Shown in pieces: positions 21,778-64,000 of a stretch of 64,000 nt of DNA. Positions within the stretch are counted from its first letter, which is position 1, and the number at the start of each line of letters is the position of its first letter. Both the position numbers and the translations under genes were made by a program. Location of the stretch: positions 56,545 through 120,544 of the forward strand of contig MU057416.1 in assembly GCA_013265495.1 (NCBI GenBank). Direction: 5' to 3'. The DNA is from Vicugna vicugna. Taxonomy: Eukaryota. Under the pieces are notes generated by a model, which saw only the letters and a program-made list of their open reading frames with translations, did no database searches and was not told the DNA's origin.

Positions 21778-22588
21778 NNNNNNNNNNNNNNNNNNNNNNN
21801 NNNNNNNNNNNNNNNNNNNNNNNNNNNNNNNNNNNNNNNNNNNNNNNNNNNNNNNNNNNNNNNNNNNNNNNNNNNNNNNNNNNNNNNNNNNNNNNNNNNN
21901 NNNNNNNNNNNNNNNNNNNNNNNNNNNNNNNNNNNNNNNNNNNNNNNNNNNNNNNNNNNNNNNNNNNNNNNNNNNNNNNNNNNNNNNNNNNNNNNNNNNN
22001 NNNNNNNNNNNNNNNNNNNNNNNNNNNNNNNNNNNNNNNNNNNNNNNNNNNNNNNNNNNNNNNNNNNNNNNNNNNNNNNNNNNNNNNNNNNNNNNNNNNN
22101 NNNNNNNNNNNNNNNNNNNNNNNNNNNNNNNNNNNNNNNNNNNNNNNNNNNNNNNNNNNNNNNNNNNNNNNNNNNNNNNNNNNNNNNNNNNNNNNNNNNN
22201 NNNNNNNNNNNNNNNNNNNNNNNNNNNNNNNNNNNNNNNNNNNNNNNNNNNNNNNNNNNNNNNNNNNNNNNNNNNNNNNNNNNNNNNNNNNNNNNNNNNN
22301 NNNNNNNNNNNNNNNNNNNNNNNNNNNNNNNNNNNNNNNNNNNNNNNNNNNNNNNNNNNNNNNNNNNNNNNNNNNNNNNNNNNNNNNNNNNNNNNNNNNN
22401 NNNNNNNNNNNNNNNNNNNNNNNNNNNNNNNNNNNNNNNNNNNNNNNNNNNNNNNNNNNNNNNNNNNNNNNNNNNNNNNNNNNNNNNNNNNNNNNNNNNN
22501 NNNNNNNNNNNNNNNNNNNNNNNNNNNNNNNNNNNNNNNNNNNNNNNNNNNNNNNNNNNNNNNNNNNNNNNNNNNNNNNNNNNNNNNN
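21778..22588. other. Assembly gap (811 N), flanked by poly-T and (CCTT)n
   Basis: Run of N; simple repeats on both sides. Confidence 1.
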
Positions 22589-38830: not shown

Positions 38831-41309
38831 GGTGATCTTTTATACTGTGCGATACTCTGTGTTTAAGAATGGTCCTGGTTCATGTGCGTGCTGTTCACAT
38901 AGCAGGGGTGTCACTGATTTGAGGACACAGGGAACCCCACACACTCAAGGTGTAGTGCGTGTTGGACTGGAAGTGAGAACTTGGTCACTGGAGGTGGGAG
39001 TGAGGACCCGGAACTTGTCGACTGCAGAATAACCATGGCTGCTGTATTTCAGATCTCCAGTGTGTGACTTAATAGAGTTCAGGAGTCTTGGTTGAATAAA
39101 TGAATGAGTTGATTACTGTCACACGGGGTGTAAGATGTCCCAGTCATGTCATTGGTAAGTAGCTCCTTCAGGCCACTCTTTGAGGTGAGTGAAGGAACTC
39201 GCTGCATCTAAGTCCCCACGATGTCAGTGTCCACCAGCCCTGAGAGAGTGGACAGAGGAGAATGGGAAATGGGACCACCAGGCAGAGACCGCAGCAGCTC
39301 CGTTCCCTCCCGCTGGTGAAACAGAATCATAACATCTTCAGTGACCTTTGTGCTTAGATTCCCATCTTTAATTTTAATGCTTTTCTCCCAAGAATCTTGT
39401 TTTCTCTATGTCGAGGGCTACCGTAGCCACCTGGAGGAGAATTATCCCGGTGCAAGTGTTGAGCTGAAGGAAGCAGGGCAGGAGCTCTGCTCTCAGGTCT
39501 TGGCTGCTGAGTCCGGAGGGGGAACCAGATTATCTGCCCACCTGGGCCTGCTGCTGCAACCCGCCAGCGCTGAGAGAGGCCCACAGTGGCCTCCAGCACA
39601 TCCTGACAGTGGGGCGATGTGTCTCGTGTGGACCCCCAACACTGCCTGGCCGCCCTGTCACCCTCCCTAGCATAGCCATCTCCTCGCTTCCCAAAATGAC
39701 CGTTTTACCCCTTGTCTTGATTCGTCTCCCAGAATTTCTCAATCAGCCAATCATTTCCCTCCTGTTCTTCTAAAACCGTGGCAGTGAATCACACAGGAGC
39801 TTTCTCGTCTTCCTACCGCTGAGTCTGCCAGCGCACGTGTAAGTCAGTGCCACCGCCGTCTTCTCGTTTCAGACAAGAGTCCCTGGTTCTATCCAAGACC
39901 AACTCTCCTGCGTGTGATCAGAAGCCAGTGCTTCCTGACCCCCCAGGGACGTTGCTTCTGCAATCGTTTTCTTCTCTGCTGCATGGAAATATTTTCCTCT
40001 TTAGTGGAATTTCAGTCGACGTATGAATATGCTCTAACATGTCCTGTCCCAAACAAAAGATACACGTTCAGTACATGTCTGTCTCAAGCTGCAGCTCCGT
40101 GTCTCTGATGATGTTTACAGCTTAGGGTTCTCGGGAGCTGGTGTCTCTCCCTTTCTCATCACACTCATTCGCTCCGTGAACTCCTCCTCCCCCTGCCTGG
40201 ATCTAGTGTCACCATCTCTGACTTCTTTCACTGGAACTCCCAGCAGCGTTCCAGACAGACCACCCTGCTCTCCTTTTTGAAGGACACCTAGTAGGTGTAC
40301 CAGTTAGCGATTGCTTCCGAACACATCACACTCAAACTCGGTGGCTGGAAATGTCAAGTTACTGCTTCTCCTGAGTCTGTGGGTCTCCTGGGTGGTTTAT
40401 GCGGTCTCCTTTTGCCTCACTCAAGTGTGGCGGTCAAGTGCGGGTGGCGCAGCTCTGCAGATCTAGGCTGGATTCTTCCAGGCTGTGGGCTGGCTGGTTC
40501 TGGGATGGCCTCGGCTGCAGTATTTCAAAACTGGCAGCTTTGCAGAATGTGGCCAACTCTATTCTAGCTCAGTCCCTCCAGAAGGTAATAGGTTTCATTT
40601 ATTGGTGGCAATTCCTGACTTTGTGTGTGCTTGTGTGCTAATCTAGGGAAAGCATAATCTGAAACCTTTTTACTCCTCCGCATTTCTGTAAGCTGCATGG
40701 CTTCATTTTAAGGTGCCAGGGAGATGAGTGAAACCATGGTGGAGTCATTTCTCATCTTACAAAGGATCAAAACAAAAAATGAGCAGGGTTCAGAACATCC
40801 TTAGGGTACTCCATTTCTGTGTGAAGACCTGTGTGAGCAGAAAAAGCATTTTAGGATAAGTACATGTACAAAAAGTCAAGTTTTTTTGTGGCTAAGAAAG
40901 CTATCATAGATAAATGAGTTATCTCTGAAATACGGAAAACCTCTTTTTTTTTTAAATATGTAAATAAAGTGAACCGTAGCGGCTCTGCCATCTGTGTGAG
41001 GCTGAGAGTTCCTGGAAAATGACTCATTCAGTTCAGCAAAGACGTGAAACCAGATTTGAATGTAAAAAATACATGAGTTCCAGAGAACCTAGGATGCAAG
41101 GATTAGCACAGACACTTCCCAGTGCAGTGTTTGGAATAGAGGTGGGGTCATGGAAAAACGAGCAGACACCGTGGACGTGGACGGGAAGGCTCTTCAGTAG
41201 TGAGCACTGCTCTTTGAAATTGCTTTGATTTAGTTGCTGGAATTAACTGTCCAAGGCCTGTAGGGGTCATTTAGTTCAATGCCATTTTGTCTGTTAAGCC
41301 ACTGAAAAT

Positions 41310-43787: not shown

Positions 43788-44045
43788 CTATGTCACATCT
43801 CTTACTATAAACAGGAGCCATAGCAATGAGGTGGCATGTAGACACTGTTTATTGAACAACGGAGTGCTTGTGTAGTTGGTGACTCTGTAGTTCGAGTGGA
43901 TTTCCGGTTTCACATCACAGACGATGCTCAAAAGCTGGTTGATGACACTTTCCATGGACGTGCTGTGGCTCCCATCCAGCTCTTTTATCTTCCTCAGTGT
44001 CTGTGCTTCTATCTCTCTGGAGAGATTGCTCTGGGAGCCCATTGT
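43788..44045 (-). CDS. ATP6V1G3: ATP6V1G3 exon 3 coding part; orthologous stop position 43872-43874 is TAC, frame runs on to 43788
   Basis: Acceptor ttctgttctggtag|ACA ATG GGC TCC CAG. ORF 43788..44042 matches the G3 C-terminus up to NYRVTN and then continues for 28 extra residues. Confidence 0.93.
   Translation of the reverse strand, partial: TMGSQSNLSREIEAQTLRKIKELDGSHSTSMESVINQLLSIVCDVKPEIHSNYRVTNYTSTPLFNKQCLHATSLLWLLFIVRDVT
43848..43853 (-). terminator. Candidate polyadenylation signal AATAAA (another at 43452-43457)
   Basis: tttatt on the plus strand, ~20 nt past the orthologous stop position. Confidence 0.35.
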
Positions 44046-44745
44046 CTACCAGAACAGAACAGACGGAGTTCACCACATGACGCTTCGGATTAGAGTCTCA
44101 TTGTTTTGCAAGTTAAACTTGTCTTCACCTGTTTATGGGTGATTGTTCTCTGGTGTATGTGTTATTTTTCCAGAATTCTCTCAGAGAACGGACAAGATCA
44201 GCAATGCTATGAGGAGGATGGATAAACTTTTCTAAAAAATATAATTGGAAAAAAAAAACAAGACAAAACAAACAAAAATAAACCACTATACTATACACCT
44301 GAAACTAATGAAATATTATTAATCAACTATACTTCAATTAAAAAAAGCAAATGGAAGCTGGCCACGGCATGTGAGCTCTGCTTCAAGGTGACCTTTGCAC
44401 AGTAGAAATCAAATAAAAAGTTCACAGCCATTACACCACACGCAGAAGTTTCTTCATGGTTTTGTAATTGAGTCCCCGTATCTGCCCTACTGCTTTCTGA
44501 ATTAAAAGTCTGGACAATAAAGTTGAAAGACTTCAATCCATTTTTGCTGGTTTTTAAAGAGCAAATAACTGGCTTGTCAATTTTTAAAATACTTTATCTG
44601 AACTGATTAAATCTTGTTTCTCAGAAAGATACAGCCGCAGTATGCCCAGTGAGATGCTTCTACATGCACAGATAAATATCTTTTTAGGCAATGGATATAA
44701 TCTTGAAAATTTTGGTATAAACTGGATTTCTTTCAAACTGAGATA

Positions 44746-45236
44746 TACAGACATTTGGTCCCCAATTTTGATGCTGTGACTCAGAATTTTTTGATGGTGA
44801 GAAAGTGATAGTGTATTCTGCAGGGACCGTAACTTGCCTCTGGAGCTTCTCCCCAGGCCAGTGATGTCCAGTGGGACGCTCTCCGGCGATGCTCGACAGT
44901 GGTGAGCCCCAGCTCCCAGCCAGCCCAGGAGCCATGAACGTCAACAACTCACTCACACAACCATTCTGCACCAGACAACCATTCTCTGTTTCACTTTCTG
45001 TACTGCATTCAATCAATTCCATGAGTTATTCAAGACTTCATTATAAGATACGCCGTGTGGGATGAGTTTGCCTAATTGCAGGCTGATGACAGTGTTCTGA
45101 TCACGTTTAGGGTAGGCTGGGCTGGGCTGTGTTATCGATGGATTAGATGTCATCAATGCATTTTCGACTTTGCTATTTTTAGTTTACAGTGGGTTTGTCA
45201 GGACGTAACCCCATCGTGGTCAAGGAAGAGCTGTAC
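44746..45236 (-). mobile_element. Tigger-family non-autonomous DNA transposon (MER47/Tigger5-like)
   Basis: aatgcattttcgactt...gggtttgtcaggacgtaaccccatcgt...ctgta end and tacag start. Confidence 0.7.
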
Positions 45237-46348
45237 TTGTCGACTTGGTTCCATGATGATTCTAGACTCAGCGTAACTCATCTTTCTGGTTGTTCTGTCA
45301 TTGGCAGTGATTCTGGTCTTTCCTACTTCATCCTCTGTCTCTTAGCCTCCCTGTCAAGGAATGACAAGATTGAAATGCAATTTTACCAGGAGAGTTACCA
45401 ATTTAAAAGGATTCTTCAGTGAAACCCTCTGTGAAATTATCCACTGCTGAAGCCAACAGCCAGCTCCTAATTTATCTCCTTCGTAAACTCAGCCTTTCTT
45501 GAACAGGGCATCATTAGGTGACACAGCTGGTTTTTGTTTGTTTGTTTTTCTCTCCTGTGAGTGTTTAGGGAAGGTATGCATTTAATTTAATCCAAGAGGA
45601 CTCCACTAATGACTGATTTTTACTGCCAGGTTGTTAGACTGTTCTAAATCCTAGAATCCACAGGATCTTTCTGGGCCCTGAATTTGAAATAGAAAGCAGT
45701 TGAGGCTGTCCGGTTCCGGTTCTTTCCTGTTTACAGTCTGGGCAAGAGGGGCTTCCTAGTTCAAAGAAAATCATTTTGAGGAGATACAGCTTCTAAGACA
45801 TCAAATAGCTTTCATAAAATTACATTTTGGTAAGTATGCATGCAGGAACAACAGACATTTGGATAAAATTTCCCTTGCTACAAGGAAGTTTGAAAATAGA
45901 GAACTACTTACCAAAATAGTTCTACCAAAATCAGATTTTTCCTCTAAATCCAATATCTTAAGTGAGATTCTACCAAACTCAAAAATAAAATTACTTTTCC
46001 TAAATACAATGTCTTAAGTGGTGAAAAATTTAAAAGACAAACTGTTACGAAACGATTATCTATTTTTCTTAGGAGCAGTGTTAAAAATGGTTATTTTTAG
46101 GCTAGATTACTGCAGCTATCCTGAAGGACTTTGGAAAAGTTCATCTCAACCTTATGTTCTTTATTTTTTAAATACGGATAACATCAGAACATCACCCATT
46201 TGATGGGACTGCTGTAAAAAGTCAACCAGAGTCATGTGTGCAAAGTATGCAGAGTGGTGCTGCCCAATAGAATTGTAATATGAGCCACCAATGACCCATA
46301 TAAGTGACGTAAATTTTTCTATAGTATTAAAAAAGAAAAGAAAAAGAT

Positions 46349-46505
46349 GGAGGATATAGCTTAATGGTAGAGCATGTTCTTAGCATGCACAAGGTCCTGG
46401 GTTCCAACCCCAGTACCTCTGTTAAAAAAAAAAAACTAAGTAAATAACCTAATTATCCCCTCCACAAAAAACCCTAACTAACTAACTAAATAATTAAAAA
46501 AAAAA
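46349..46505 (+). mobile_element. tRNA-derived SINE (Vic-1-like)
   Basis: tatagcttaatggtagagc...gtcctgggttccaaccccagt, A-rich tail, aaaagat on both flanks. Confidence 0.88.
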
Positions 46506-47932
46506 GATAAGTGCCTCGAACACTGCTTGGCACATAGTAGGTGCTCAGTGCATCCCTGTTGAACAGAATAGAATGAGCTGCTCACCAGGCATCAGGGAGA
46601 ACTGATTACCTGTGTTCTACTGCTCTCGTCGGCCGAAGCCTGCTGCCTGAGTATTTGGGACACTATATAAATTAGAAGTCGATAATTATGTGACGTGGAA
46701 CTTGGTATGTTTGGCCGAAGGGTGCCGTTTGAGGACTTCTCCAGGCAAATTTCCCACCCTTCAGTGCTGCGGCCGCTGTGTGCAGCTTTGCAGAGTAATG
46801 ACTGATGGTGTTGGCGAAATCTTTCAGCGTTCAATAAGTTTCCTTGTAAGTTGTTCAAATGTTCCAATTTAAGGGAAACCAGAGGGTCAGGTCTCACACA
46901 GTCTTGCATTCTCAACTTGTGGTTGCTTCAAGGAAACAAAAATGCTTTCATGATAGGAATTTAGAAAGAAAGGAAAAAGACATTTTTTAGATCTTTTGTT
47001 CAGATTCGTGGTCCGTCTAACTTTTACTTGCATTAACAGTAGATACAACTTCCCACTGCAGTCCAGATCTCTTTTCGGCCAAGTACTGTTTTCTCCAGTA
47101 GAGGATGTTATTTTGCAGGACTTTCCGAGGTCCTGCAGGATGGCCGCAGGAGCTCCATCACCGCGGTTTTGTCTTTCTGAGAGAATCACAGAAACGGAGC
47201 CCTGCAGTGTGAACGGCCGCCTTCTTCCCTCAGCAGAGCTTCTTCTTAGAATCACCCCAGCTGTCACGTGTATCATTCGTTTGATCCTTCTTATTGCTGA
47301 GTGGTGCTGCAGTTTAGCAAGAGACAAAGTGAAATAAGGGATAAGTGTACAGCAGGAGATAGCAAAGTAAATCTTTGTTATAAAAATATTCCTTGATATA
47401 CAGCCCACCTTGGGATACTCACTTCTACTGATAAAGGAGGGGGGTGGAAAATGAGTCAGGGGGTGTGGAAAAAACATACATTAGCAAGAGCTAAGAAGCA
47501 CCCAAAAGAGTAGCATTGCGGGGCAGCAGCCACAGCAGGTGGGAAACTGGTTTCCCGGGGCTCCTCCGGGAGCTCCTCCGAGCCCCGGGTGAGCGCCCAC
47601 GAGCTCCGCGCGGGACAGCGGCGTGTGGCCCCCGCGGGCCGTGGCGGGAAGGCGCTGGGCTCACGCTTCACAATATGCTTGAAGCCGCAGAGGCCCGAAT
47701 GCGTTGACCTTCCTATGTGAGATTTTGATCAACTAGCTGTTAAATTGGCTTAGAGCTCTCATTCTGAGAGCGGTGAGGAGTTTTAATTATTCTCCAGCTC
47801 AGAGAATAAATACCATGAGCCAGACTTACATCTTATGAGATTCTTCATGAGACGTAATATTTCAAGAGATTAAACCCAACCACTTTCTAAAATTGTGGTC
47901 AGTTTTGTAATTATTTAAAAAAAATAATAATA

Positions 47933-48110
47933 TGGGGAGAAAGTATAGCTCAGTGGTAGAACACATGCTTAGCGTGCACAAGGTCCTGGGTTCAACCCCC
48001 AGTATTTCCATTAAAATAAGTAAGTGAATAAATAAACCTAATTACTTCTCCCCAAAACAAAAACAAAAAATAAATAAAATAAAATATTAAAAAGTATATT
48101 AATTAAAGAA
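47933..48110 (+). mobile_element. tRNA-derived SINE (Vic-1-like)
   Basis: gtatagctcagtggtagaacacatgcttagcgtgcacaaggtcctgggttcaacccccagt plus tail. Confidence 0.9.
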
Positions 48111-49332
48111 GAAGAATAATTCATATGTTAGAAATATCTTCTGCAGGATCAGAAAAGCTGATTGGTGTTAAGGGTGATTATTTTTTGGATCCTAATAAGT
48201 CATGGTTATGACAGGACTCAATAGGAAAGATAAAAGCATAGAAGAAATGTTGAGTTACTCATTCTTTCAATGAATACTTACTGTGTATTTACAATGGGGC
48301 AGTAACGTCTAGGAAAGCAACAGGGAACAAAATAAAGAACCTGCCATTTTGGTGCTTACAGTCCAGAAGGAAAGATAATCAATAAGCAAAAAATGTGAAT
48401 GTATAGTATATCCTGTAGTGATAAATGCTATGACTATAATTAGTACTTTCTTTTTTTATGAGAGACACAATCTTAGATAAGGTGATCGAGAACAAGAGCC
48501 AACAACTAACTGAACAGAGATCAAAGAGCAATGAATGTCTGTGAAAGAAGAGGATTCCTGGGAGTGGCTACAGCATATGCAAAGGCCCTGTGGCAGTGGC
48601 CTGTTCAGTTCACCTGGGGAAGAGCAGGGAGACACATGTGGCTAGAATAGAACAAGTAGAGACAAAGGGAGTAGAATATGTTACAAATGACCAAAGTAGA
48701 CATTGTTGCCAATTGCTGACAAGTCTTCTGGTATTTCCTTATGATTTTCTTTTCAACTAGCTGGCTCCACTCAATAAACCTTTCATACAAAATATAAAGA
48801 CATGCTGTTCCCTACACTAGCATTTAAAAAATATCTGCACTTTCAAAGGCAAGTGCATGACACTCAGAGCCCACAGGTCAGAGAGAGAGCCGAAGGGCAG
48901 TTGTGAGGGGCGTATGTGTTTGTGTGGACTGGGGAGTCTATGATTCCTTTTTCCAAATATCGATAAGAAGAATTTATTTTTGCTGAGTGGTCCACTTTAT
49001 TCTAAGGCCCTTTTGTTTCAAGAAACAGCCCGTTGGAAAAGTTTTTCCTATCGTGGGATCTCATTCACCTGATCTAACGCAAGCTCTGCATTGACTCCCA
49101 CTAAAATCAAAGCTGTAAACGGAGAGATTTACAAACTGCTTGCAGTTCATCTTGCCGTGTCAGGCTTCTGCACAGACCTTTATTTGTGTTTTTGCCAAAG
49201 AGAAAATACATCAACTTTAGTTATGGCGCATGGAATTTAATAATTCCTTTTAGTTCATGTTGCAAATCAGCTCTGAAAAATTCCTGCACTTATGTATTTT
49301 ACTGTAAACTGCAGATATTTTTTAAACGCTAA

Positions 49333-49463
49333 TGTATGAAAAAGCATTTCTTTACATTTTCATTAAAGATTGGTTGAAGGGAGCCAGCCAGTTGAAAAGG
49401 AAATCGTAACGGAATACCAGAAGCCTTTGCAGCAATTTGCAACAATATCGACTTTGATCATTT
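49333..49463. repeat. Intronic source copy of the 131-bp dispersed duplication
   Basis: Aligns without gaps to 50013-50143 (offset 680) with 4 mismatches. Confidence 0.97.
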
Positions 49464-49933
49464 ATAAATCTTGAATTAACCAAAGGAAATTTGGCCTAAC
49501 AAGCTCACTGTAGAACATTGTTCAACACTTTTTATTGATTCTACTAGTAAACATTAATAGACAAAAAAAAAGTTCTCTGTATTTTTTTCTTACTAAAATG
49601 TGTTAGTCAATCATCTGTAGTAGGAATAAAACTAACCAATTCCATCAACTTGTATATCTGAGAATATGATTTTTAACACATACGATGTATTAGATAAGAA
49701 CTATGGATTGACAGTCTCTATGACGAATGTGAAAACGTCAAATCGGTGATTCTGGGATGTTTCTGATTTGATTTGCGGTTCAGCCATGGTGAAGTCTATT
49801 TGCTCCATCCGATATGTTCTCTCCTGATATCCTGCGTCGGACCTTATGAAGATGAAGATCTCATCACTGTTCATGGATGTTAGTGTCTTACCATCTAAGC
49901 TGCTTGGAAATCGGTGCCAGCCGTCTCGCTCAC

Positions 49934-50157
49934 CTTAGCGTGTTTCAGCCGGAATGCCTGATCTCTCTGCATCCTGTACTGGTCAGTCTCTGCCATCGCT
50001 TCCTCCTTGGCCTGTATGAGAAAGCATTTCTTTACATTTTCATTAAAGACTGGTTGAAGGGAGCCATCCAGTTGAAAAGGAAATCGTAACGGAATACCAG
50101 AAGCCTTTGCAGCAATTTGCAACAATACCGACTTTGATCATTTTGGCTTGGCTTTTC
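49934..50157 (-). CDS. ATP6V1G3: ATP6V1G3 exon 2 (224 nt, disrupted by an insertion; ~101 nt expected)
   Basis: Acceptor tgttaattttcag|GA AAA GCC AAG CCA AAA TGA (stop at 50138-50140). Homology resumes at CAG GCC AAG GAG GAA GCG ATG (50014) and ends CAC GCT AAG|gtgag. Confidence 0.92.
50013..50143. repeat. Inserted copy of the 131-bp duplication inside ATP6V1G3 exon 2
   Basis: Direct repeat of 49333-49463, flanked on both sides by exon 2 coding sequence. Confidence 0.97.
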
Positions 50158-52454
50158 CTGAAAATTAACAGTGGCACAGAAAGGACAGATTTCTCTTCAG
50201 CATACAGAATTTCAAACTTGCTTTTTAGAAATACAGGTGAGGTCTACATGATTTTCAGATGCTCCACCCCCCCCCCCGCCTCAAATGATGCCCTTTGTTT
50301 AGAAACAAGCAATACTGAAAAATTCCTTGTTTTTTCAACTGGATTCTTTCGAACACGGAAATGACAACTTTCTTTTACACTCACATGTTTAAATGAAATA
50401 TCTTCCCGTTTACTATCACAGGAGTAACAGCCAGAGAGCAGATCTGAGCTGTCACTTACTCAGAAAGACATTATTTGGTCAGATCTGCTGTCCTGATTTG
50501 CTGCCAGGAATCCTTCAGTCCACACCAAATGAATCTGTTTAACGCTGGCAGACCTCCAACCGGCACTACAAACATGTGGCTCAGACTCTCTCAAACCAAC
50601 TTACAGTTTTTTAAAGCATTTTATTGGGGTGTTTTCCTTACCGTGTGTTGACTCTAGAATGTCTGATTAAGCCCCAAAGCACATCAAAGTAGACATTTTT
50701 TGTAGTCGCTTTCTCTGAGGGGGACTTGAAAGTGGTTGTAAAACCAACGGTTTTAATGGTTAGGAGATTTAGTTAAGTAGCTCTCTTTTCTTTTATTAAG
50801 AGCAAAGGTGTAAGCCTTAAGCCAGCAGATAGCACGGTAGATGAAAGTTTCAGAAAAATGTGAAAAACTGTGGAGATCATTAGGTAAGCACATGACTTTT
50901 TTGACAACCAGAGGAAGTATTGGGGGGGAGTGACAGAGTCATGTTAATCACTGCTCAGCCCTTACCACCCACCACCTTCGGGGAAGCTAGGTACTAACGC
51001 TCTGTGATCATTAAAACTTTAAAAAATCTCTGAACTGTATTGAAACTAATTTTCTTCAGAATCTATTGTCTTTCTATTTTAGTTAAATGCCTTGATTCAT
51101 TTGCCCGTTTAACATCATTTTTTTCTTCTGGTAAGATCTCTTAAGCTTTGGTTTATAATTTTTGTCAATGGTTTGTTGCACTATGTAGACTTGGAACTAA
51201 ATGTGTTTTCATTAAGTAGCATGAAAGAAAATCTTAACATAAACCTTATCTGTCATCTAGATACACAGGTTTACATGGCTTTGTTTTTGTGTAACTTTGT
51301 TGCATTTGAGCAGAGATGAGTCCTAAATTTCTCTTCCTGCTGCACAGAAGTTGCTTTGCGAGTCGCTGTATATGTGTGGACAAGAGACAGTCACTGTGTT
51401 ACACACTGAAATGTGTCTCTTTTAGTACCTCTTACCCTTGAGCGGGACTGAGCAGACGTCATTCACAACGCATATTTAGCTCTGTCTTAATTGTCCTTAG
51501 AATCCAAGGTCTAGTGAAAATGAGTGTTCTTCCAATGACTGAGCCTTAATGGAACGTTACCAGTAATGCTTTCCTTTTTCCTCCTCAATTCATGCTCGTT
51601 ACCATCTTGTATGTACACTTTTCTTCCTCTCTGGAGCTCTGACCACTTCCTGGCAACCACACACACGCCGTTCACAGGACAAACAAGCGAAATGTTGGCA
51701 AGGAAAACCATTCCTAGCCCCCAGCTCACTTTCTTATCCCTGCTTGTCACTAACATGAGGACAAAAATATATGTAAGAGGTGAGAAGATTTCTTAGTCGT
51801 AACGTGCTGTGGGTTACGTAACGAGTGGTCGGACACTATCTGATTGAGCAAAAAACCCCATAAAACATCATTACTTTCCATCTTAATTGCATATTGTGTA
51901 AAAGTACTTGTTTCCAAGTTGCAACTCGAGCACATTAAAAAAAACAACAACAACTAATAATAGGAAAAGCGCTGCGTGCCCGGCCCCTGCGCAGAAGCTG
52001 GCGCCCCTCTTCGGAGGCTGCGTGAGCTCCGAGTGCGCCTGCTTCCCCGGTGTGGCGCCGGTCACCTGCTGGTTCTCATTCAGTTAAACAGGGGAGCCAC
52101 GGGGACCTCGGGCGGCCCGCGGCGGGGAGGCGCAGGGCACCAGCCAGCCCGCATGGCCTGACCGCTGCTGGCTTCTGCGTCTGCGTGGGAACCTTCCAGA
52201 TTTTACAATTGCACCTCTTCCTTCTTTAAGCATTAAAAGCGTGGCTGCTGGGAACCCAAATGAGATCACGTTCCTATTTCTCAATACTTTCTCTCTCAAA
52301 CACAGGGGTGACCTTTTGGGACAGTCCAGATTTTAAATAGAACAGTCACATATTGGTCCCCAATTTCCTATAAGGTCACACGAGGCCAAATGTCCTGATT
52401 TTTGGTTTAGAAAATGAGACAACTCGTGCGTCATGATTTTATTACTTTAGAAAG

Positions 52455-52556
52455 TTTTTTGTTTGTTTGTTTTTTTAGCGGAGGTACTGGGGACTGAAGG
52501 CAGGACCTCGTGTAAGCTAAGCGCGCTCTCTACCACTGAGCCACACCCCCCCACCC
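52455..52556 (-). mobile_element. tRNA-derived SINE (Vic-1-like)
   Basis: gaggtactggggactgaagg...ctctaccactgagccacacccc with a T-rich tail. Confidence 0.85.
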
Positions 52557-54229
52557 CGTGCTCCCTCATCGTGATTAAAAATACTCCCGAGCAGGTGCTG
52601 CCGAGTGGTGTGGGAAAGGCTGGCTTCCCTTTATCCATCCATTATTCATTCAGTATTTATTGAGTACTTGCTGCATATTACACAGAGGGCCAGAACCAAA
52701 CGTGCGATACGGTTTTTGCTTCTAGCTGACATGCATGCAGTGTATTTTGGAAATACGTACATGCTGCTCCAGCGTCCATGAGGAGAATTAGAAAATGCAT
52801 AAGATTGTCAAGAAGGCACAAAACCAACTATGAAGACAATGGAATGTAAGTCTTGGTTCAGTGTGTTTTGTGACAGCGAAAAACTACATTTATGGAAACC
52901 TCTCCTACTAAAATTCTTGAGAATCGGTGCTTGCCCGCACCCCGGTGGTCATGTCATGTCTTGTGGTAGCAGAGTTAGTAAAGAAGACGAACAAACAGAC
53001 CCACCTGTGCAGGGTGGGGGCTCAGAGGAGCCGCCAGGGGGGATCAGGGAAGGTGTCTGAGGAGAAAACTGTTACACTGAAGAGACTCATTAGCCAGGAC
53101 AGACATGGGAGTGGACAGTGTATTTTGGCATCAGAAAAAAAAAAAATGGCAAGACGACCCCTTCTGTTTCTGGGAACTCTTTATAAATAGTTCCCCTTTA
53201 AATCATTCGCTTTTAGACGTTCGGTCTGCTACACCCTGCTTTCAACGAGCCGTTGCTGAGATACATTCCATAGGGTGTTCTGTGGGAGGAAAAGTAGGAA
53301 AGGAAGGTGTTTGGACTGATTTCCAGGTGATTGTGGGGAAAGGATTAAAAAATCAATTTAGGGCAGGTTAGAACTGAGCTCTGTTCCCGGGGCTGGGGGA
53401 GTGGGCAGGGCTGTGCGCCGGGTTCCGCTCGGCTTCTTGGTGAGAAAAAGCCGAGGGGCTGAGGGCCCCAAGATGCTTATGAGCACCGCTCCATGCTGGG
53501 ATTGCTAACCTGCTTCTGGATCCCTTTTCTGAAGGGAAGAGAGGCTTCATTGATCGTTTCAGAAAGAAATCAGAACTGTACCCTGGGCACCACTACAGTA
53601 AAACGTTAGAAGCTTTGTAACCTCGAGCAAGGTAGTTTCCGAACCTGAGCTTTCTCACCTGTAAAACAGATTTAATGCTGTACTGCAGAGTCATCGGAAG
53701 GATTTGCAACACATACATAGTGCTTGATGAAGAATGTTCAACAATTTCCAATCATTATTAGGAAAGAAAGACCGATTCCCGGGGCCGTTTGCTAAGAAGG
53801 AAGGCAGTGAGGAAGGCGGGGGTTGAGGAGAGAGCTCCGGGCTGTCACCCAAAAAAGCCCCTGCGGGCTTCCCTGAGGTCACCCACAGGGAGATGCCCAG
53901 AGGGCAACCGGACGGGCAAGTCTGGAATCCAGGAGAAAGGTGTGAAACGGAGACGAGCTCTGCTTTGGCGTCATCTGGGTCTGGCGTGCTCGAGGCGGCG
54001 CAGTGGGTTTGGGACAAAGTCAAGGGGTCTGCACAGAATGAGCAGGAAAGAGGGCTAAGGTCTCAGCCGAGGCGGGGGCGGGGGGCGCCGACGTTGGGAG
54101 GATGAGAACAGGAAGAACAGCGTCAGGAAAAGCCGAGAGCAGTCACCGGAGTCGGAGGGGAACCAGAATAGAGAACAGCCCAGAGAGGAGGTGGCCAACA
54201 GATGCTACACGGACTGGATGTGAATGGGC

Positions 54230-55540
54230 CGTCCTCAGTCAGCCATCATTCCTGGGGGTCTGCCACGTCGCACACTCTTCTAGGTCCCGATACAGCAGTG
54301 AAAACCACAGGCAGACACACTTTCTGCTCTCGTGGCGTCCCGACTGTCGCAGGGAGAGGTAGAAATGGAAAACTGACAGGAGGACACAGTGCAACGGGGT
54401 GATGAGTCCTGGGCGGAGGAATAAAGGAGCCATCGGGACAGAGAGGCGGCTGGAAGCTAACTGAGATCAGGCAAGCCTCTCAGAGGATGTGCCATGCGAG
54501 CAGAGACCCCAAGGGGTAAGACAGCTAGCCATGCAAACGCCTGACAGGGAAGGGCGTTCCAGGCAGACGGAACAGCAGGGCAAAGACCCTGAGGTCGAAG
54601 GGCATTTGACACGCTCAAGGAACAGTAAAAACATCATCATGGCTGGGTCAAAGGTCAAAGAGCAGAATGGTTGAATGTCAGGAGGACTATCACAGAGGTG
54701 GCAGTAGGGCCAGGTCACAGAGCTCTCCTGGGGAGGGCGAGGATCTCGGTCCTTGAGACGCTAAATCCATGAAGGGTTTTTACCAATGGGTGGCATAATG
54801 TTCTTTATGATCTAAAAGGAGTTCTTTGGCTGGTGTGGCGAAAGAGACTGTAAGAGCAAGGAAGATGCAGGGAGAGTGGTTTGAAATCTACTGCACTAGT
54901 TCAGACAAATGTTAGTGATGCCTGGCAGTGGTGAAGTGGCCGTGCAGTTGCTGCGAAGTGACACAGACGTTGAAGGCAGAGTTGATGGAGAAGCAGGAGA
55001 GACAGACAAATCAATGACGGCTCCGACATTTTATTTTGGTGGGGGGGTCAAGAATGCAGTTTGAGACACCCGTTAAATATCTGGTGGGGATGGTGAGAAA
55101 GCGGATGTTAATGTGAATTTGAAGATCAGGGAAGCAAGTCAGGCTGGAAATACTGAAGTTTGGGGAACATCAGCCTAGAGCCGGGATTTGAAGTCGTAGG
55201 ATTAGGTGTGATCACCTGGGAAGTGTCTGCGGATGCAGGACAGAACAAGTCCAAGTGGGGGCTGGACTCTGGAGGGAGGGGGGGAGGTAGAGGAAGGCCG
55301 AGCAGGAGGGCGGGGTCACGCAGGCCAGTGAAGGGAGAGCTTCAAAGATGAGAGACGGACCCCGTTGTGACAGAGAAAGCTGATTCACCGGGGTTAGCAA
55401 CACTGCTGGTCTTCGCAAGAGAAGCTTTGGTGGAGTTGGAGGGACTGAAGCCTGATTAGAGTGGGTTTCGGAGAGAATGGAATTTAAAAATGCAGACACA
55501 GGGAATCTAGGCAACTTCTTTGAGAAGTTTTCAGTTACAA
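54230..55540 (-). mobile_element. L2 fragment
   Basis: gggaagggcgttccaggcagacggaacagcagggcaaagaccctgagg...ggtggagttggagggactgaagcctgatt. Confidence 0.7.
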
Positions 55541-55594
55541 AAACAGACAAAGAAGATAAGGACTCAAGATGGTCAAGTGGGTTTGTCAAGAGGA

Positions 55595-56050
55595 TGTTGT
55601 GGGTTGAACTGTGTCCTTCAAGGTGTGTTTATATCGTAATGGACGTGACCTTACTTGGAAATAGGGTCTTGGGAGATGTCGTCAAGTTAGGACGAGGTCC
55701 TACTAGATTAAGATGGGTCCTACATCTGATAACTGGTGTCCTTATAAAGAGAGGGAGCTTTGGACACAGAGACAGAGCAGCACAGAGCAGACATGCGGGG
55801 AGGAGGCCATGTGATGGCAGGGGCAGAGACTTGAATGATGCAGCTCTAAGCCAAGGAAAGCCAAGGGCTGCCGGCCATCAGAAGCTGGGAGAGAGACGTG
55901 GACACATCCTTCCTCAGTTCCTTCTGGAGGAAGGAACCACCAGCTCGTGTTTGGACTTCTGGCTCCCAGAACTGGAGGCTAATATACGCCTGTGGTTGGG
56001 AGCCATCCTGTTTGTGGTGATTTGTTTAGCAGCCCTAGGAAGCTAACACA
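55595..56050 (+). mobile_element. MLT1B/C-like LTR
   Basis: tgttgtgggttgaactgtgtcc...gtgaccttacttggaaatagggtctt...ttggacttctggctcccagaactg...gcagccctaggaagctaacaca. Confidence 0.85.
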
Positions 56051-59000
56051 GTGGCTCAGAGACACAGACACACAAGGTCAGTTGAGCACCAGATGCAAAG
56101 TCACGTGCTTGAGTGTGGTACTAGGAGTATGTTTCCAAATGAACGCACCGCCTGAAAAAAAAAATGCACAGACAGAGCAGAGGCCACCTTGATGTGGTCT
56201 GAACACAGAGGGCACTCTGGGAATGTTTGAAGATTTCTATGTGTTACTAATTGCACATTTTTACTCTGCTCTACCAAATAGAAGAAGAAAAGGCCTTCTT
56301 GGCTTTGGGGGTGGTTAATATGATGACACAAACAACCTCATTCAAAGAGCGTTCTTATTCTGCTCGCCCTACAAACTTCGGAACAGTGGTCCGTTACCAG
56401 GAAACAAAGGAGCCACCTCTCTTTTGGCACCTTGAGTGTTCCCATGCTTCTCTGCTGAACCACATCTCTCCTTTCATACCTCTGACTTCTTTGTGAATCC
56501 TTTGTTATTCCTTTTTCTTGTACATCCTTATTAAAAAAATAAAACTTAAGTAGTTTTGTGTAGATCCTGGATTGAATATAACCAAACATCATTAATAAAT
56601 GAAAATGTCCTGTGGTTATTATTTTAATATGACCCACTCGAAGAAATGAAAGGCCAGCGTAGCCATGAATACCCATTAGTCTGTGGACTGTAAGAAGAAG
56701 GAAGGATTTACAGGCCTACAAAACATACAGAGCAGGGTCGTGAATTTCTCCTATAACAATTTTCATTTTATTCGTTTATTAGAAGTTATGTCTTCACGAA
56801 TCAAAACACTCCCTGGCACAGTGAAGCGTTTATTAAACCAAGGTGCTTGGTGAAATAATTTGGAATCTCTGTATATTTGGAAATAAATCAGCAATTCAAA
56901 TTGTGATTAAAAAAATCAGCGGGAGGCCTCCTCGAGACCCACAGAAGTGAACATGCCTCACTGTGTTTGCTGATGAGTTATCCAGGGAGAAAGCAGAACT
57001 ATTTCAAGGCTTTAGTTTGCACTGGAGTACAACTCAATGCACAGAAATATTTAAATTATTTTACTTGTTTGTTTTATTTGCACTGCAGTAGAATTCAGTA
57101 GAAGGTCGTGCTGGATTCATCAGAGGGGGCCCTGCGATTGCCCTGGACCCGGCACAGAACCCTTTTCACTAAGCGGTGGAGGAATTTTCCCAGCTGACAC
57201 GGGTGCAGCCCCTGCTGGGGACCAAGGCGTGTTTTAAGTCCTTGATAAGCGTTAGCTCAGCTAACCGTGAGGACGACTCCCTGAGGGCGACGGGGCCACC
57301 TCCGCCGTGAGGCTCAGGAGGGGAAAGACCAGGGGGCTCAGGGATAGCCAGCCCCACGTCGCCCGGCCAGTCGGAGGCGAGAGCTGGGCTTGTAGCCGGA
57401 GCCGCCGCTTGCTCCTGGGGGCGAGGGGGGTCTGCGCTGTCTGGGTCGGACACCCCAGGGTCGCGACCCTCGCTTTTATTAAGACTGCCCAGAGCTTTCA
57501 GAACCTCTTTCTTATACCTGCTTGTTCAGTGTTTCTCATGCCCAGATTTGAACATTTATGTTTACCGCATCTTTTGATCTGTATCCCATAATGCAAATTG
57601 TAATTTTGGGTTAAACACAAACGTTATTTACCGCAGCTGCCAGAGTAGACAGGTGGAGTGTTAATTTGTGGGGGAGGCCACGGTGCACATTTGGAAATAT
57701 GTCAGGAATATGGATTCTTTATGTGACGTGGAGCAATTCAAATGACAGCATTAGGGCCGAATGGTAGAGCCTCCCAGGTTTGCAGTGGGTGTAAATGAAA
57801 TAGACACTGTGCTCTTAAAAGGTGTAACTTAAAGTAAAAAAAAAAAAATCACGTGTTTCAGAGAAGACATGGATGAGGGGGCCCTGACTTCCTATTCTAA
57901 TTCTGATCAAAGATGCAGGTAATTTCCCCAAAGCTGGAGCTCCAGGGCAGGTCCGATGCTCTGTTGTGAAAGTGTAACTTGCGTCGACCAATACACTCAC
58001 TTTTATGTTTTGAAGGATGCACAATTTTAAGCAAAAGGTGTTAACTTCAAGTGAGATAAATTAAAATAATGCCATAGCAAGAGGTAAACAAAAATAATAA
58101 AAAATAATGCCAACCTACTGCAATTCCACCTAAATTCAAACAGTTTTTACACATAAAAATTTGGGTGAGTGTCTTAACTAGTAAATACCATTCAATCCAC
58201 ACTCAGTGAATAGAGGCGAACGTCTGAGTTCTTTCACTCATTTTACTAGAAGCAGCGCTGGTCTCCTCACTGGAAGAAAAGTTGAGCCCCCCCACCCCCA
58301 ACAGAAAACAGAAAAGTTGGCCGAGAACTTGCAGCCGCTGTAAAAAAGGATGAAACGAGACTGTTGTTTCTGGTTTCCTACTCCAGTCTTCTGTTGCTTT
58401 TACCTACAGTCACATACAAGTATACATACTGTATAAATTAAAAAGAAGACTAACTCATTAGTTTTTACTCTACCACCTTAGGTACCATTTTTCTGATCCT
58501 TAAAGCATTTTGGTCACACATATTAAATATTACATATAATATTTTATTCTTCTGTATATTTCTGTTTTCTTTTTTAAAAAAAGCAAAGATGGAAGCTCAG
58601 AGATGCTCAGTAACTTAAACAAAGAAATAAAAGGAAAAAGCCGGTGCTCTTTCTACTCTGCTGCCTCACAGCCCAGCTTTGCGAGTCTGTTGGATATCCG
58701 CACTTCCGTACCACGCCCCCCCAACAGCAAACCAGCCTGCCAGTCCCACCTCTCTGCAGCTGGAGTCTTGAGAGCAGGGACCTGTGATTGCATTTCCACG
58801 GCTCTAACAGCCTTCAGGAGAGCCCCTAACACCCTTGTCTGTGTCCCGAAAGGCAAAGCATTTACACACGTACAGGACTGTGGAGTAACTTCCCTGGGAT
58901 CTGAGGCCGTCCTCCTGAATGGAATATGTTCATAGTTTTGCAACATCATATGTACATACTAGCACTATGTTAACCTTGTGTTTTTCTAAAATGATTAACA

Positions 59001-59075
59001 TGTGACTTACTATTTTTTCTCTCTCTGTCTTTCTCTCCCTCCCTCCATTTCTCCCTTTTTAAAATATATTTCACA

Positions 59076-59232
59076 GGGGGAAGGGTCTAGTTCAGCAGCA
59101 GAGTGCATGCTTAGCGCGCAACAGGTCCTGGGTTCCATCCCCAGTAGTGCCATTAAGAAATAAATAAATGAATAAATAAACCTAATTACCTCCCCCTGCC
59201 AAAAAAAATTTGATTAATTAATTAAATTTTAC
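59076..59232 (+). mobile_element. tRNA-derived SINE (Vic-1-like)
   Basis: Diverged A box, gtcctgggttccatccccagt, and the shared aaacctaattacctcccc tail. Confidence 0.85.
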
Positions 59233-60208
59233 AAATACACTCACAAGCCTTGCTCTAGCAGGGTAAGTTCTGAAAGTCTTGTAAATAAACGGATTTAGGA
59301 AGAAGATGGTGAAGCTAAGCCTGCAAGTGTGTTGCTGCTGTGATCGATTAGTTGCCGTTCTGAGTCTCTGTTCTGCCTCTGTGTCAGATTTTCAAATGAA
59401 TCTCTTTTTGGAAAAAAGGCGAGTAAATCTATGGGTTTACAAAGATGACGGCTCTCTGTACCTCGCATGGCATTTCCACATCTGTCTCGTGGGGGAGTCT
59501 TCTGAGGAAGGTCTTCTCATCAGTGAATATACCAGAGCAGCCTGAAAATCACTGGCACCCAACAAGTACTTACTGAATTAAACACATAAATAAAATTAAA
59601 AAAAATAGTGAAATAGCAGAAAAGCTACGAAATAGCAGGTACACAAGGCAGCATTGCACTTGGCCGCGGCGAGCTGAAGAAGCGAGTGACGGGCACGGGC
59701 CCCGGAGCTGTCACCTAGCCGCCCCTGCGTGTGGCGTCTGGGCAGGGAACGGCCCCCGTCTGTCCGGTGAAAACGGCCCCCGAGCCCGTGCTCCCCGAGG
59801 CCAAGGACGGGCTTCCTCTGAGAAAGTGAGCGCAGAGCTCACTGGTTGAAACAACAGTTGGAAAGATATTTTCCAAAATATTTTTAAGGCCAGGGTATTT
59901 ACTATTACTGGTTGATATTTGTTCAAAGATTTATGAACAAAGACCAAGAAAAAAAAGTACATAAGTATTTTAAGTGACTGGTCAACAAAATGAACATTGT
60001 GTATACAAATAATACAGTATGGACCTTCCGGTACTGACTTCCGAGGAGAGATTGCCCGAACACAGCATACTGACCAAGGGGAGGGAAAAATAGCCTGTCT
60101 TCTACCTTTCCTGTGAAAGCTGAGGTTAGATTGTTCTGAGAGGTTCCCACCTCCAAATGACTTGCCTGATTCCCAGTGCCTCTCTAATGACTGAGGAATG
60201 AGAGATAA

Positions 60209-60351
60209 GGGGGAAGGGTGGGGTATAGCTCAGTGGTAGAGCAGGTGCTTAGCATGCAGTAGGTCCTGGGTTCAATCCCCAGTCCCTCCATTAAAAAAAT
60301 AAATAAGTAAATACATCTAATTACCTCCCTCCCCCTCAAAAATTAAAGAAA
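60209..60351 (+). mobile_element. tRNA-derived SINE (Vic-1-like) with TSD
   Basis: Full A/B boxes; TSD aatgagagata at 60197-60207 and 60352-60362. Confidence 0.92.
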
Positions 60352-62068
60352 AATGAGAGATAGGTGGTAAGTATCATTTGGATCAAATGACAATATTGAC
60401 TATGTGCTCAATATTGTCATTTTGTTTCTTCCATCTTGAGGAAGGAATGGTAACATAATGACCACATCTTAAAATAAACTGATCTTCTGTTCTGGACATT
60501 TTAAATATAGAAAAGAAATTTGAATAAAAGATAAGGGAGTTTTCTACACTGTTTCAACCAGCAGGTCCTGGGCTGCTTTGTTTTCTCAGCAGTTACTCTG
60601 TGTTCATCCCATTTGGCCATCATTTGCATGGTTTGTTGTAGCGAAAAAAAAAATGGAGAAGTTGGTCAAGTTTGCCTTCGTTAGCTTGAGCCTTCCCTTT
60701 CCCTTCCAGCACCTCCACGTGGACTCTTTTTCTTTTGTGCTTTGGTGCCCACATTGCTGAGTGTTCAGGAAATCAACTGATCTTAAGAAAGGAAAATGAC
60801 TTTATATGTGATTGAAAACCCCAGGGGACTGAGTAGTGAGTGTCTGCCTTGCCTTCCTTTCTTACACTATCACGTCCTGTGCCCACGTTACATTCAATGC
60901 ATTGAAACAAGCTTCTGTCAATACCGACTCTGTTCTGATCTCTTCACGCAGCCAAAGTCTTACACAAGCAACGCTTTAAGACGTGATCCCTGTCTGGCAG
61001 GGCTTGGAATCTAATTGCAGAGACAGGACATGTAATTAGGAAGGTAAATGACACACCATGTTGGAGATTAAGTAAGGATGTGAGTGAAATGGGACAGTGG
61101 GGGAAACAGAGGTCTTGGCCCCCAGGGACCAGAATTTGGGGTGTAGATCTGTGACATTCGTTTATTCGTTATGAAAATCACGTACATTTTGTACAGTGCC
61201 TTGTTTAGATTGTGGCTGGGGGATCAGACCCCACCAAACCCTGTCTCTACCATTAACCTCTGTGTGATCTTGAGCAAGTTGCATCATTTCTCTAAGCTCA
61301 CTTTCCCCTTTTTGCAAAGAGGGTTGGTGTGAAGAGTAAATAAGATAAGGAGTAAGTAAGTAAACAAGATGAGCATGGGCCTGGCACCCTATTTTCTGCT
61401 TTTTAAAATATGGCTGTCGGCAAACTATAGACTCTCAATTTCTGCATAAGTGAAATGGAAATGTAGTTATTATGCCTAATCCGTGTGGTTGCTGTGAATG
61501 TCAAAGAAACATTCTCTGGGTAAGCACGTAGATGAATGACCAAATAACAAGAAATCAGAAAGTGAGAATAAAATGGAAATATTTTTAAAGGTTGGACATT
61601 AAAAACCATCAAGAAAGGGAGAACAAATGTAACTTTGTCACAATGTGCAGAACAGAAACCGATGCCTACAGAGGCTAAGACACTTGCCCAAGCTCGCTCA
61701 CTAGTCCGTCACTTCGGTCTGGAAGTGGCCTGTCCTTTCTTAACCATTCTGCAACATTGAGACACCGAGGCGTGGCGGCTTTAGGGAAGTTGGAGGCAAA
61801 GCTCAAGCCCGAGTCTCTGCAACTTCAGCGTCCATCATCATTTCCCACGGAGCGCGATGTGGCCAAAAGATCTGAGCTGGGGAAATTCATCCCCACTCTA
61901 GTGATGGGAGACATGCAACTGGGAAGCTTTAGTGAGCTGGCCACGGTCTCCCCGAGAGCGTGGCGGAACCAGGGAGTAACCTGTTCGAGAGGTCCGCGCT
62001 CCTCCTCCTGCACGCCCCTCATCCGTTTTGTGACCAGTCCCTCACAGGGCAGACAGGAGGGGGCTTAC

Positions 62069-62150
62069 TCCTTTTGGCTTCCTCGAGCTTGTCCTTGGCC
62101 CTTTTCTCTGCCTGGAGGAGCTGGTGGATCCCCTGGGACTGGCTGGCCGT
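62069..62150 (-). CDS. ATP6V1G3: ATP6V1G3 coding exon 1 (82 nt, starts ACG instead of ATG)
   Basis: Minus strand reads gccggccaccACG GCC AGC CAG TCC CAG GGG ATC CAC CAG ... GCC AAA AGG A|gtaagc: 27 codons plus 1 nt, phase-1 donor. Confidence 0.95.
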
Positions 62151-62374
62151 GGTGGCCGGCTCCAAGTCAGGTGGCTTCTGAGAATCTGGGAAGGGATGGA
62201 AATCACCACAGAGCTCACACTGTTGTGTCAGCAGTGAGCACTCAGCACAGCTGTTGGCTCCCAAGCGGCCTGATCAGGTGGGGGAGCGGGGCTCCAAGGA
62301 GAGCCCAAGGGTGGAATCCAGAAGAACAAGTCAAGTCAAGGAAGCTGAGAGCTCACTTCTGCCAGCTTCAGGTC

Positions 62375-62381
62375 TTTTATA
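62375..62381 (-). promoter_or_regulatory. Candidate TATA box of ATP6V1G3
   Basis: TATAAAA on the minus strand, ~225 bp upstream of the exon 1 start codon position. Confidence 0.4.
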
Positions 62382-64000
62382 TGCAATCAAGAGAGTTTCA
62401 GGGGGTGTTGAGTCTGCTTACAAAGAAAGGAGTAAGATCTCTGCGGGAGGTTAACTTCTCTCTTCTTCCAAAGAACCTTGACGTTTTTGCTGACTTTTTC
62501 TTTCAAGTTACAAGGCCTTTCTGTGTTCTTTGTCCTTGTGGTTCTAGTTTGAGGTCTTTTTCTTTAGTTTCCAATGAGTCAATTATCTGCTTGGGACAAG
62601 TGTATCAGCCTTTTGCGAGGAAGGAGATCTCCTGGCTTTGTGCACAGAAGGTAGGCAAGGCGTTTACTGTTCTTCCCCAGGCCTCGGGTGACAGGAATGA
62701 AGAGGCTTCTCGGGGTGTCGCAAGGCGCTGTAGCAATGCTGCGCGCTAGGGTTCCAGGAAGCCTGCCGCGTGCTGATTAAATCAGCATTAGAGGAAATGG
62801 GACTGTAGGTTTTGAGGTTCGCTTAAAATCATCTAAACATGCGTGTTGTGTTACTCTGGGCTTGCCCTGGGGGACGTCCTAGTAAGAGAGTCCAGTAAAA
62901 TCCACCTTATTCGAGTGGATTCAACCCGCTAGTGACTGACAAATCAAAACGGCGGGGACAGTGGAGAGATACAAAATATCGCTTACATGAATTGAAAGTT
63001 TTGTTTGAAGTGAAAAGCTAGTCTTTTGACATACGGCCGAGGCTTTTTTCTCTGACATAATTGGCAGATAGGACTGTCACTTACGATGACTTCCACCAGC
63101 TGCACCTCTGTTGCCTCATCATTACATACCAGGTGCAATTTCTTTAAATAGGTGCACAAAGTTAGAGAGTAATGGGAAGCATTCTGCGCGTTAAGTCCGT
63201 AAGGGGTTAATGATAATTCTCCCCTAACAGTTTAAAGAGATCTTGCTGTGATACCTGCATCACAATGCCACGCTCCGGCTTCATCACGTGCACAGATCTT
63301 TCCACACACGCACACACAAAAGCCCTTTTTCACAGGAGCACCTTTCCTTCTCTTTGTGTTCATATTTAATTAGTTTATAAAACTGAACTGTTATTGCATA
63401 ATTACCATCCTTGGTACATCCGGAATAAACAGGTCTGTGAACAAACACAGCTCTTCGTAAACGTGCATTTCACCTGTCAGAGCAGAAGTGTGAAGTCAAA
63501 CCGGCGACTGGCTCGCCAGCCTCTGGCGGGGCCTGGCATCGGCGTCGGCGGACTTTTTACCGAGTGGGGACCGCCAGCGACTTCTGTGAACGTTCAGTGG
63601 AGGTCGTTACAAGCAACTTGCTTTAATCTGATACCAGCAGTGTCTACTGACTTTCTCCTGAGTGCATCCCCCTGGATGAGGCCAGTTCAGGGAACTGGAT
63701 CTTGAGACACAGAGAAGGGATAATCCTGCAGGGAGATCACTGGGGAGGATCTGGGTAAGAAGGCTGATTCCTCAGACTGGCGTTAATAAATACACCGTCT
63801 CCTAAAAGTCTGAAGAGACGGGGTGACTCTGTGAGAGTTCGAACAGGTTGCGTGATCACATTGTCACCAGCGAAGGCTTCCTGAGTCCACAGTAAGCGCC
63901 TCCCTGCCTAACCCTAAGACTCCTTTCCTGGCTGCTGCGTTTTTTAAATTCAAATCTGCCAGAATAATATACTACTAATGTGCATGTGTTTTAAGCCAAC

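Follow-up and report, generated by a model that had tools for sequence, protein, structure and literature searches.

The analysed window, a stretch of 64,000 nucleotides of the vicuña genome (Vicugna vicugna, contig MU057416.1 of assembly GCA_013265495.1, positions 56,545 to 120,544), carries on its minus strand a copy of ATP6V1G3, the gene for G3, the kidney-enriched isoform of subunit G of the V-ATPase peripheral stalk. In this South American camelid the gene is best read as a unitary pseudogene, whose start and stop codons would have been lost on the camelid stem and whose second exon would have been disrupted later by an insertion in the lamine lineage; on the strength of the genomic and protein sequences compared, this reading is given a probability of about 0.8. 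ATP6V1G3 thus appears to be a decaying gene, and the whole camel family may represent a natural knockout. Each of the coding exons carries one lesion that breaks or alters the open reading frame (ORF), namely the loss of the start, an internal TGA within an insertion of 41 codons and the loss of the stop, and the 118-codon ATG-to-stop ORF of functional G3 is not intact in the window. An earlier sequence-only reading of the same DNA had placed an ACG start, an exon 2 TGA and a TAC in place of the stop at coordinates that all proved correct; the three sites lie on the minus strand. Its proposal of a unitary pseudogene, lost specifically in camelids, also stands as the best reading with one lesion per coding exon, and is refined here in that the lesions differ in age.

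Judged from its structure and its relatives, the copy is the orthologous, intron-bearing camelid locus. Coding exon 1 (62069-62150; features of the gene lie on the minus strand unless stated otherwise) comprises codons 1-27 and the first base of codon 28 and is followed by a GT donor at 62068-62067 (A/GTAAGC). Coding exon 2 (49934-50157, 224 nt) follows ...TTTTCAG/GA and precedes AAG/GTGAGC, and coding exon 3 (43875-44045) comprises codons 62-118 behind the acceptor ...CTGGTAG/AC. The three coding exons are thus separated by GT-AG introns of ~11.9 kb and ~5.9 kb, one in phase 1 and one in phase 0. Since all four splice sites are canonical, the locus is intron-bearing and not a retrocopy, as the sequence-only reading had maintained, and the two long introns rule out a processed copy. 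Functional mammalian ATP6V1G3, as in right whale, sheep, muntjac and human, likewise has three coding exons with the same intron phases, with an identity to the window of 78-82% in exon 3 and, for sheep, of 96% in exon 1; unlike these genes, the copy in the window lacks both the start ATG and the stop at codon 119 and has a TGA-bearing exon 2 insertion of 123 nt.

The translations of the individual exons support the same assignment. Exon 1 encodes TASQSQGIHQLLQAEKRAKDKLEEAKR, which matches residues 2-27 of sheep G3 exactly, with only codon 1 differing. Among the matches listed, it is G3 proteins, and not G1 or G2, that stand nearest to the copy, every named mammalian one being G3 or hypothetical protein. 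The exon 3 translation is 71-82% identical to cetartiodactyl G3 proteins, its best database relatives, and a dromedary record agrees with it at 95% identity across the full 85 residues, including the tail that follows the lost stop. The NCBI alpaca model (P0048, 170 residues) is identical to the window over 59 exon 3 residues and over 32 exon 2 residues and matches it at 38 of 39 positions in exon 1, which by itself assigns the sequence to a South American camelid, either alpaca or a lamine very near to it. The exon 3 translation with its tail scores 31.5 bits against the Pfam family V-ATPase_G (PF03179; cut-off 28.6), and the exon 2 remnant by itself falls below that cut-off with 25.3 bits; the camelid G3 protein models reach 95.5 (alpaca) and 111 bits. 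Within intron 1, the stretch 60083-60184 (minus strand) gives a translation that shares 50% identity with residues 28-61 of a G3 model from fin whale in which another exon takes the place of exon 2; from this resemblance, the stretch is probably a conserved alternative exon belonging to further variants of the G3 transcript.

The first lesion is the ACG (Thr) that occupies the orthologous start codon (62148-62150) in the context GCCACC-ACG-G. Over the 640 nt that surround exon 1, from 62700 to 62060, the gene strand has no ATG in any of its three frames. Upstream, the frame of the ACG is closed by a TGA at a distance of 42 codons (62276); along the canonical mRNA, it meets its first ATG at Met41. 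At the other end of the gene, the orthologous part of exon 3 closes with ...EIHSNYRVTN and is followed by TAC (Tyr; 43872-43874) in place of the stop, a substitution that recurs as Tyr in 4/4 camelid protein records. Beyond the TAC, a read-through tail (43788-43871) contains 27 sense codons and ends at a TAG (43790-43788), so that the stop loss adds 28 codons in all. The tail also includes an AATAAA hexamer (43853-43848, minus strand), 19 nt past the lost stop and 58 nt ahead of the new TAG; if this hexamer is a poly(A) signal, canonical transcripts could carry no stop codon at all.

The lesion of exon 2 is of a different kind. The 118-residue orthologues imply an exon of 101 nt, whereas the one in the window measures 224 nt, and the excess of 123 nt, or 41 codons, was located by blastn and alignment as a net insertion between codons 32 and 33 (50021-50143). 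In the G3 frame the exon reads KAKPK, a stop, then SKSVLL...KKCFLIQAKEEAMAETDQYRMQRDQAFRLKHAK, the stop being a TGA (50138-50140) that forms the second codon of the insertion and is the sole stop of exon 2 in this frame. A foreign origin of the inserted sequence was rejected, as it is a copy of a local intron 2 segment: blastn against the window finds 120 of its 123 positions identical to 49463-49341, part of a source copy (49333-49463) that lies in intron 2 in the same orientation, 680 bp downstream. The duplicated tract extends to 50013 through an 8-nt microhomology, CTCATACA; in the alignment, homology runs 8 bases past the insert, with CTCATACA in the exon facing TTCATACA in the intron. 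In Camelus, L-R-Q must be the reading of native codons 33-35, with which these 8 bases overlap, and the apparent R34I substitution therefore belongs to the insertion event. The arrangement suggests a templated, microhomology-mediated copy-in, probably by template switching. Intron 2 also contains an older inverted copy of the same sequence (48685-48806, plus strand, 79.5% identity), so that 49341-49463 and 48685-48806 form an inverted pair of repeats of ~120 nt, ~80% alike and ~535 bp apart, one of which is the donor of the insert.

Several ways around the TGA were considered and set aside. A selenocysteine reading was rejected because the codon sits in recently copied intron sequence. A second CAG acceptor (50014) would shift the frame, and the GT available inside the insertion lies past the TGA. 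An in-phase cryptic acceptor (CCAG/TC) exists, and its use was judged unlikely, as it would replace the conserved residues 28-34.

The distribution of the lesions among camelids was followed in protein records. Among the proteins listed, camelid G3 is represented by four records in all. Two are from dromedary, of which KAB1258690.1 begins at residue 29 and XP_031294134.1 has no start, both being partial; one is from Camelus ferus and one from alpaca. All four carry lesions. The placental reference consisted of 45 G3 proteins of exactly 118 residues, picked from the 120 matches listed after other lengths, isoforms and non-placentals had been dropped; Met1 is present in 45/45 of them, and 45/45 end after residue 118. 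By contrast with these other placentals, all of which have Met1, R32, Y88 and 118 residues, Thr stands at the start position in 3/3 camelid models that cover the site (dromedary XP_031294134.1, C. ferus and alpaca), and all three have an identical translation of the 5' flank before it, ...SQKPPDLEPAT. The 28-residue tail and its stop are common to 3/3 Camelus records. Start and stop changes are thus shared by C. dromedarius and C. ferus; the exon 2 insertion is not, since exon 2 is uninterrupted in 3/3 Camelus records (RKAKRLRQAKEE). Because Thr and Tyr are common to the Camelus and alpaca models, the losses of start and stop predate the split between Old World and New World camelids, whereas the insertion, absent from all three Camelus records, is lamine-specific. 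One published source dates that split to 11-25 million years ago (PMC4884201).

The same comparison bears on whether one or more of the lesions might be assembly or sequencing artefacts. The assembly is below finished quality, with a gap of 811 N at 21778-22588, where several of the long ORFs reported for the window are themselves gap artefacts. Set against this, two dromedary assemblies, C. ferus and alpaca all supply records with the same start and stop changes, and the 3' end of the insertion (KCFLIQ) is present in the alpaca model. The 3 mismatches in 123 positions between insert and source argue for an old, real duplication over an assembly slip and suggest an age of some millions of years for the insertion, within very broad limits of error. 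In addition, 14 runs from 6 studies hold at least 0.90 of the sampled words of a 10-kb stretch that includes exons 2 and 3, a measure that is not specific to the lesions. Error in the assembly or the reads is hardly credible as the cause.

In the proposed course of events, the start codon would have changed from ATG to ACG in the camelid stem, before the Old World and New World lineages separated, and on the same stem the stop would have become TAC, adding 28 codons. Afterwards, among the lamines, 123 nt would have been copied from a segment close by in intron 2 and pasted into exon 2 by way of the 8-nt microhomology, bringing a TGA as its second codon and splitting the N-terminal helix at residue 32/33. 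The canonical exons could then give no full-length G3: the canonical mRNA of the window species would lack an AUG start and meet a stop at would-be residue 34, and even read-through of the TGA would place 41 foreign residues in the N-terminal helix. With no AUG, a stop at would-be residue 34 and an insert of 41 residues, the gene would be unable to supply the stalk subunit. In the peripheral stalks, subunit E is partnered by subunit G, a helix of 118 residues, and in solved mammalian V-ATPase structures the G chains have 118 residues and align over residues 2-117.

A different history would have G3 dead only in Lamini, with Camelus keeping a working, remodelled G3 that starts at the ACG or at a new ATG in an upstream exon and tolerates the 28-residue tail, so that the exon 2 insertion alone killed the gene. 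Several findings count for this history and against death on the stem. In the 3 Camelus records exon 2 is uninterrupted and the ORF body is open. The two lesions held in common affect the extremities of the ORF and spare its body, as in a remodelled working gene. The ACG stands in a perfect Kozak context (GCCACC-ACG-G), in which low-level initiation is possible, and exon 1 of the window equals that of sheep except for codon 1. Nor do the camelids stand out by their private residues: 6-7 are unseen elsewhere, a count inside the range of long branches (Loxodonta 10, Tupaia 8), and sheep and muntjac, both with normal G3, themselves differ at 6 of 118 residues. The private-residue count was consequently discarded as a test of relaxed constraint, as one that does not discriminate, the camelids being no outlier.

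On the other side stand the substitutions themselves. By chance, the translation given in the dromedary model extends over 58 codons of the 5' flank and 28 codons of the 3' flank, which allows a comparison at the protein level: between window and dromedary, differences occur at 4/86 flank codons and at 6-7 of 116-117 codons of the former coding sequence (Fisher p = 0.76-1.0, with small counts). The former coding sequence thus seems to have changed no more slowly than the translated flanks, the small counts being borne in mind. When the changes that followed the split are polarised by the 45 outgroups, conserved sites prove to have been altered in both lineages, with Y88H in the window (Tyr in 45/45 placentals) and, in Camelus, four changes of its own: K19N (Lys in 44/45), A40V (Ala in 44/45), R56W and K80N. 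The open ORF body of both Camelus species, which might be listed in favour of function, has, given as much change as was observed, a probability of ~0.3-0.5 in the neutral case and is therefore no argument either way.

No conserved alternative start is visible, as the upstream exons of the C. ferus and alpaca models are unrelated and the dromedary model has none; moreover, the AATAAA between the lost stop and the new TAG could yield non-stop transcripts. Loss confined to Lamini is, on balance, unlikely. The specific form in which Old World camels keep a remodelled G3 with a family-wide ACG start and a conserved, partly hydrophobic C-terminal tail of 28 residues is a shade more doubtful still; if it were true, the camelid stem would have altered the dosage and the ends of a kidney proton-pump stalk component, and outright loss would have come only later, in llamas and alpacas. 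TRPV6 is an example of a cellular gene translated from a conserved ACG start. The camelid ACG, kept across two lineages, likewise stands in a strong Kozak context at the start-codon position; unlike the ACG of such genes, it descends from an ATG that the other mammals compared have without exception, and it is accompanied by the loss of the stop and, in lamines, by an internal stop. The substitution patterns fit neutral decay of the gene since at least the split, with low power, and are also compatible with a constrained, remodelled gene in Camelus.

A further objection to the unitary-pseudogene reading comes from existing annotation, as NCBI lists camelid G3 as protein-coding. The models behind this annotation owe their open frames to patching with non-orthologous exons and obtain their starts in discordant ways. 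The dromedary model (XP_031294134.1) is left partial, without an upstream exon; the C. ferus model borrows upstream exons (MSPAPERPHH...); and the alpaca model has a different upstream exon (MANHGLQDL...), which is not present in the window. The alpaca model then includes a micro-exon-like TGSGA, which has its counterpart at 59775-59789 (minus strand) and lines up with the KTGTAS micro-exon of a human isoform of 124 residues; for the KTG that precedes TGSGA in the model, no coding match was found in the window, which suggests that the model derives from a different assembly or a close relative. It enters exon 2 at AATGTAAAG/AAATGC, a point of the insertion that follows the TGA. Its exit from exon 3 uses a GC donor (ACAA/GCACTC) just past the lost stop, and it ends in a non-orthologous terminal exon (39208-39240, minus strand), whose LVDTDIVGT and following stop close the ORF.

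Taken at face value, this structure would mean that G3 is still protein-coding in the window species, with all three lesions bypassed by splicing that joins an upstream ATG exon and a micro-exon to an acceptor close to where the insertion ends, and adds a terminal exon downstream, to give a G3-like protein of 170 residues. The alpaca model has exactly this arrangement and scores 95.5 bits against V-ATPase_G, and a good acceptor is present in the 5' region (CCCTTCCCAG/AT). The remaining steps are far less convincing: no pyrimidine tract precedes the exon 2 entry at AATGTAAAG/AAATGC, exon 3 has to be left by the poor GC donor, and the KTG of the micro-exon is not encoded in the window. The product itself would have the conserved residues 28-34 replaced (R32 is found in 45/45 placentals) and would carry 35 extra N-terminal residues on a subunit whose N-terminus pairs with subunit E. 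A surviving coding gene of this design is very improbable. Given the disagreement among the three upstream solutions and the weakness of the splice sites involved, the camelid NCBI models are read here as annotation artefacts. They look like patched translations of a pseudogene and would be unsuitable as orthologues in alignments or selection scans.

Loss of ATP6V1G3 along the proposed lines would resemble the unitary pseudogenes recovered by mammalian comparative screens, in which an introned orthologous locus likewise carries shared lesions that date the loss to a stem branch, with private lesions added later. Two RNA runs contain 0.33-0.34 of the sampled words, shares that do not amount to evidence of expression. 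As to how the loss could be borne, G1 is ubiquitous and is present in the kidney, and the camelid intercalated-cell pump would presumably run on it. This supposition is drawn from the mouse, where deletion of G2 is reported to be followed in brain by a compensating rise of G1 protein (PMC4564858). In that Atp6v1g2 knockout, too, a tissue-restricted G isoform is lost where the ubiquitous G1 is expressed, and the animal, as reported in that study, looks healthy and has more G1 protein (PMC4564858). The mouse mutation is engineered and affects a brain isoform, whereas the camelid case would be natural, family-wide and concern a kidney isoform, with compensation by G1 presumed. It is the combination of ubiquity, presence in kidney and rise upon G2 loss that makes G1 the likely substitute in camelids.

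We know of no explanation of why mammals keep a separate G subunit of the kidney, epididymis and inner-ear type beside the ubiquitous G1. If the proposed loss is real, a mammalian family with remarkable renal physiology would have done without G3 for over 11-25 million years as a natural knockout; acidification of the urine would then not require G3 where G1 is present, and camelid intercalated cells would offer a system for asking what G3 adds elsewhere. The sequence-only reading had further suggested a link to low acid-secretion demand in herbivores, and this did not hold up, as the sheep, muntjac and yak records have normal G3.

Full-text literature searches returned no paper on G3 loss in camelids; supplementary tables of gene-loss screens, which lay outside their scope, may list ATP6V1G3. 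The ATP6V1G3 matches listed in these searches concern other subjects, as judged by title or abstract, and a bat kidney study names G3 only as an expressed gene. New here are the sharing of the start and stop losses among camelids, the restriction of the insertion to lamines, the intron 2 origin of the insert and the patched nature of the NCBI models.

A few observations from the rest of the window and from other species may be added. The strand opposite to exon 1 contains an ORF of 330 residues (61757-62749) with no Pfam match, and a Pfam scan of 9 of the 17 window ORFs of at least 130 residues gave no match. A search of metagenome contigs for related loci matched 209 pattern stretches, of which 0 were confirmed. 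Among the mammalian G3 records, that of the dugong (Dugong dugon, P0068) is flagged LOW QUALITY PROTEIN and is without two conserved residues, and that of the pangolin (Manis javanica, P0148) is unusually divergent; G3 may thus be eroding in other mammals too.

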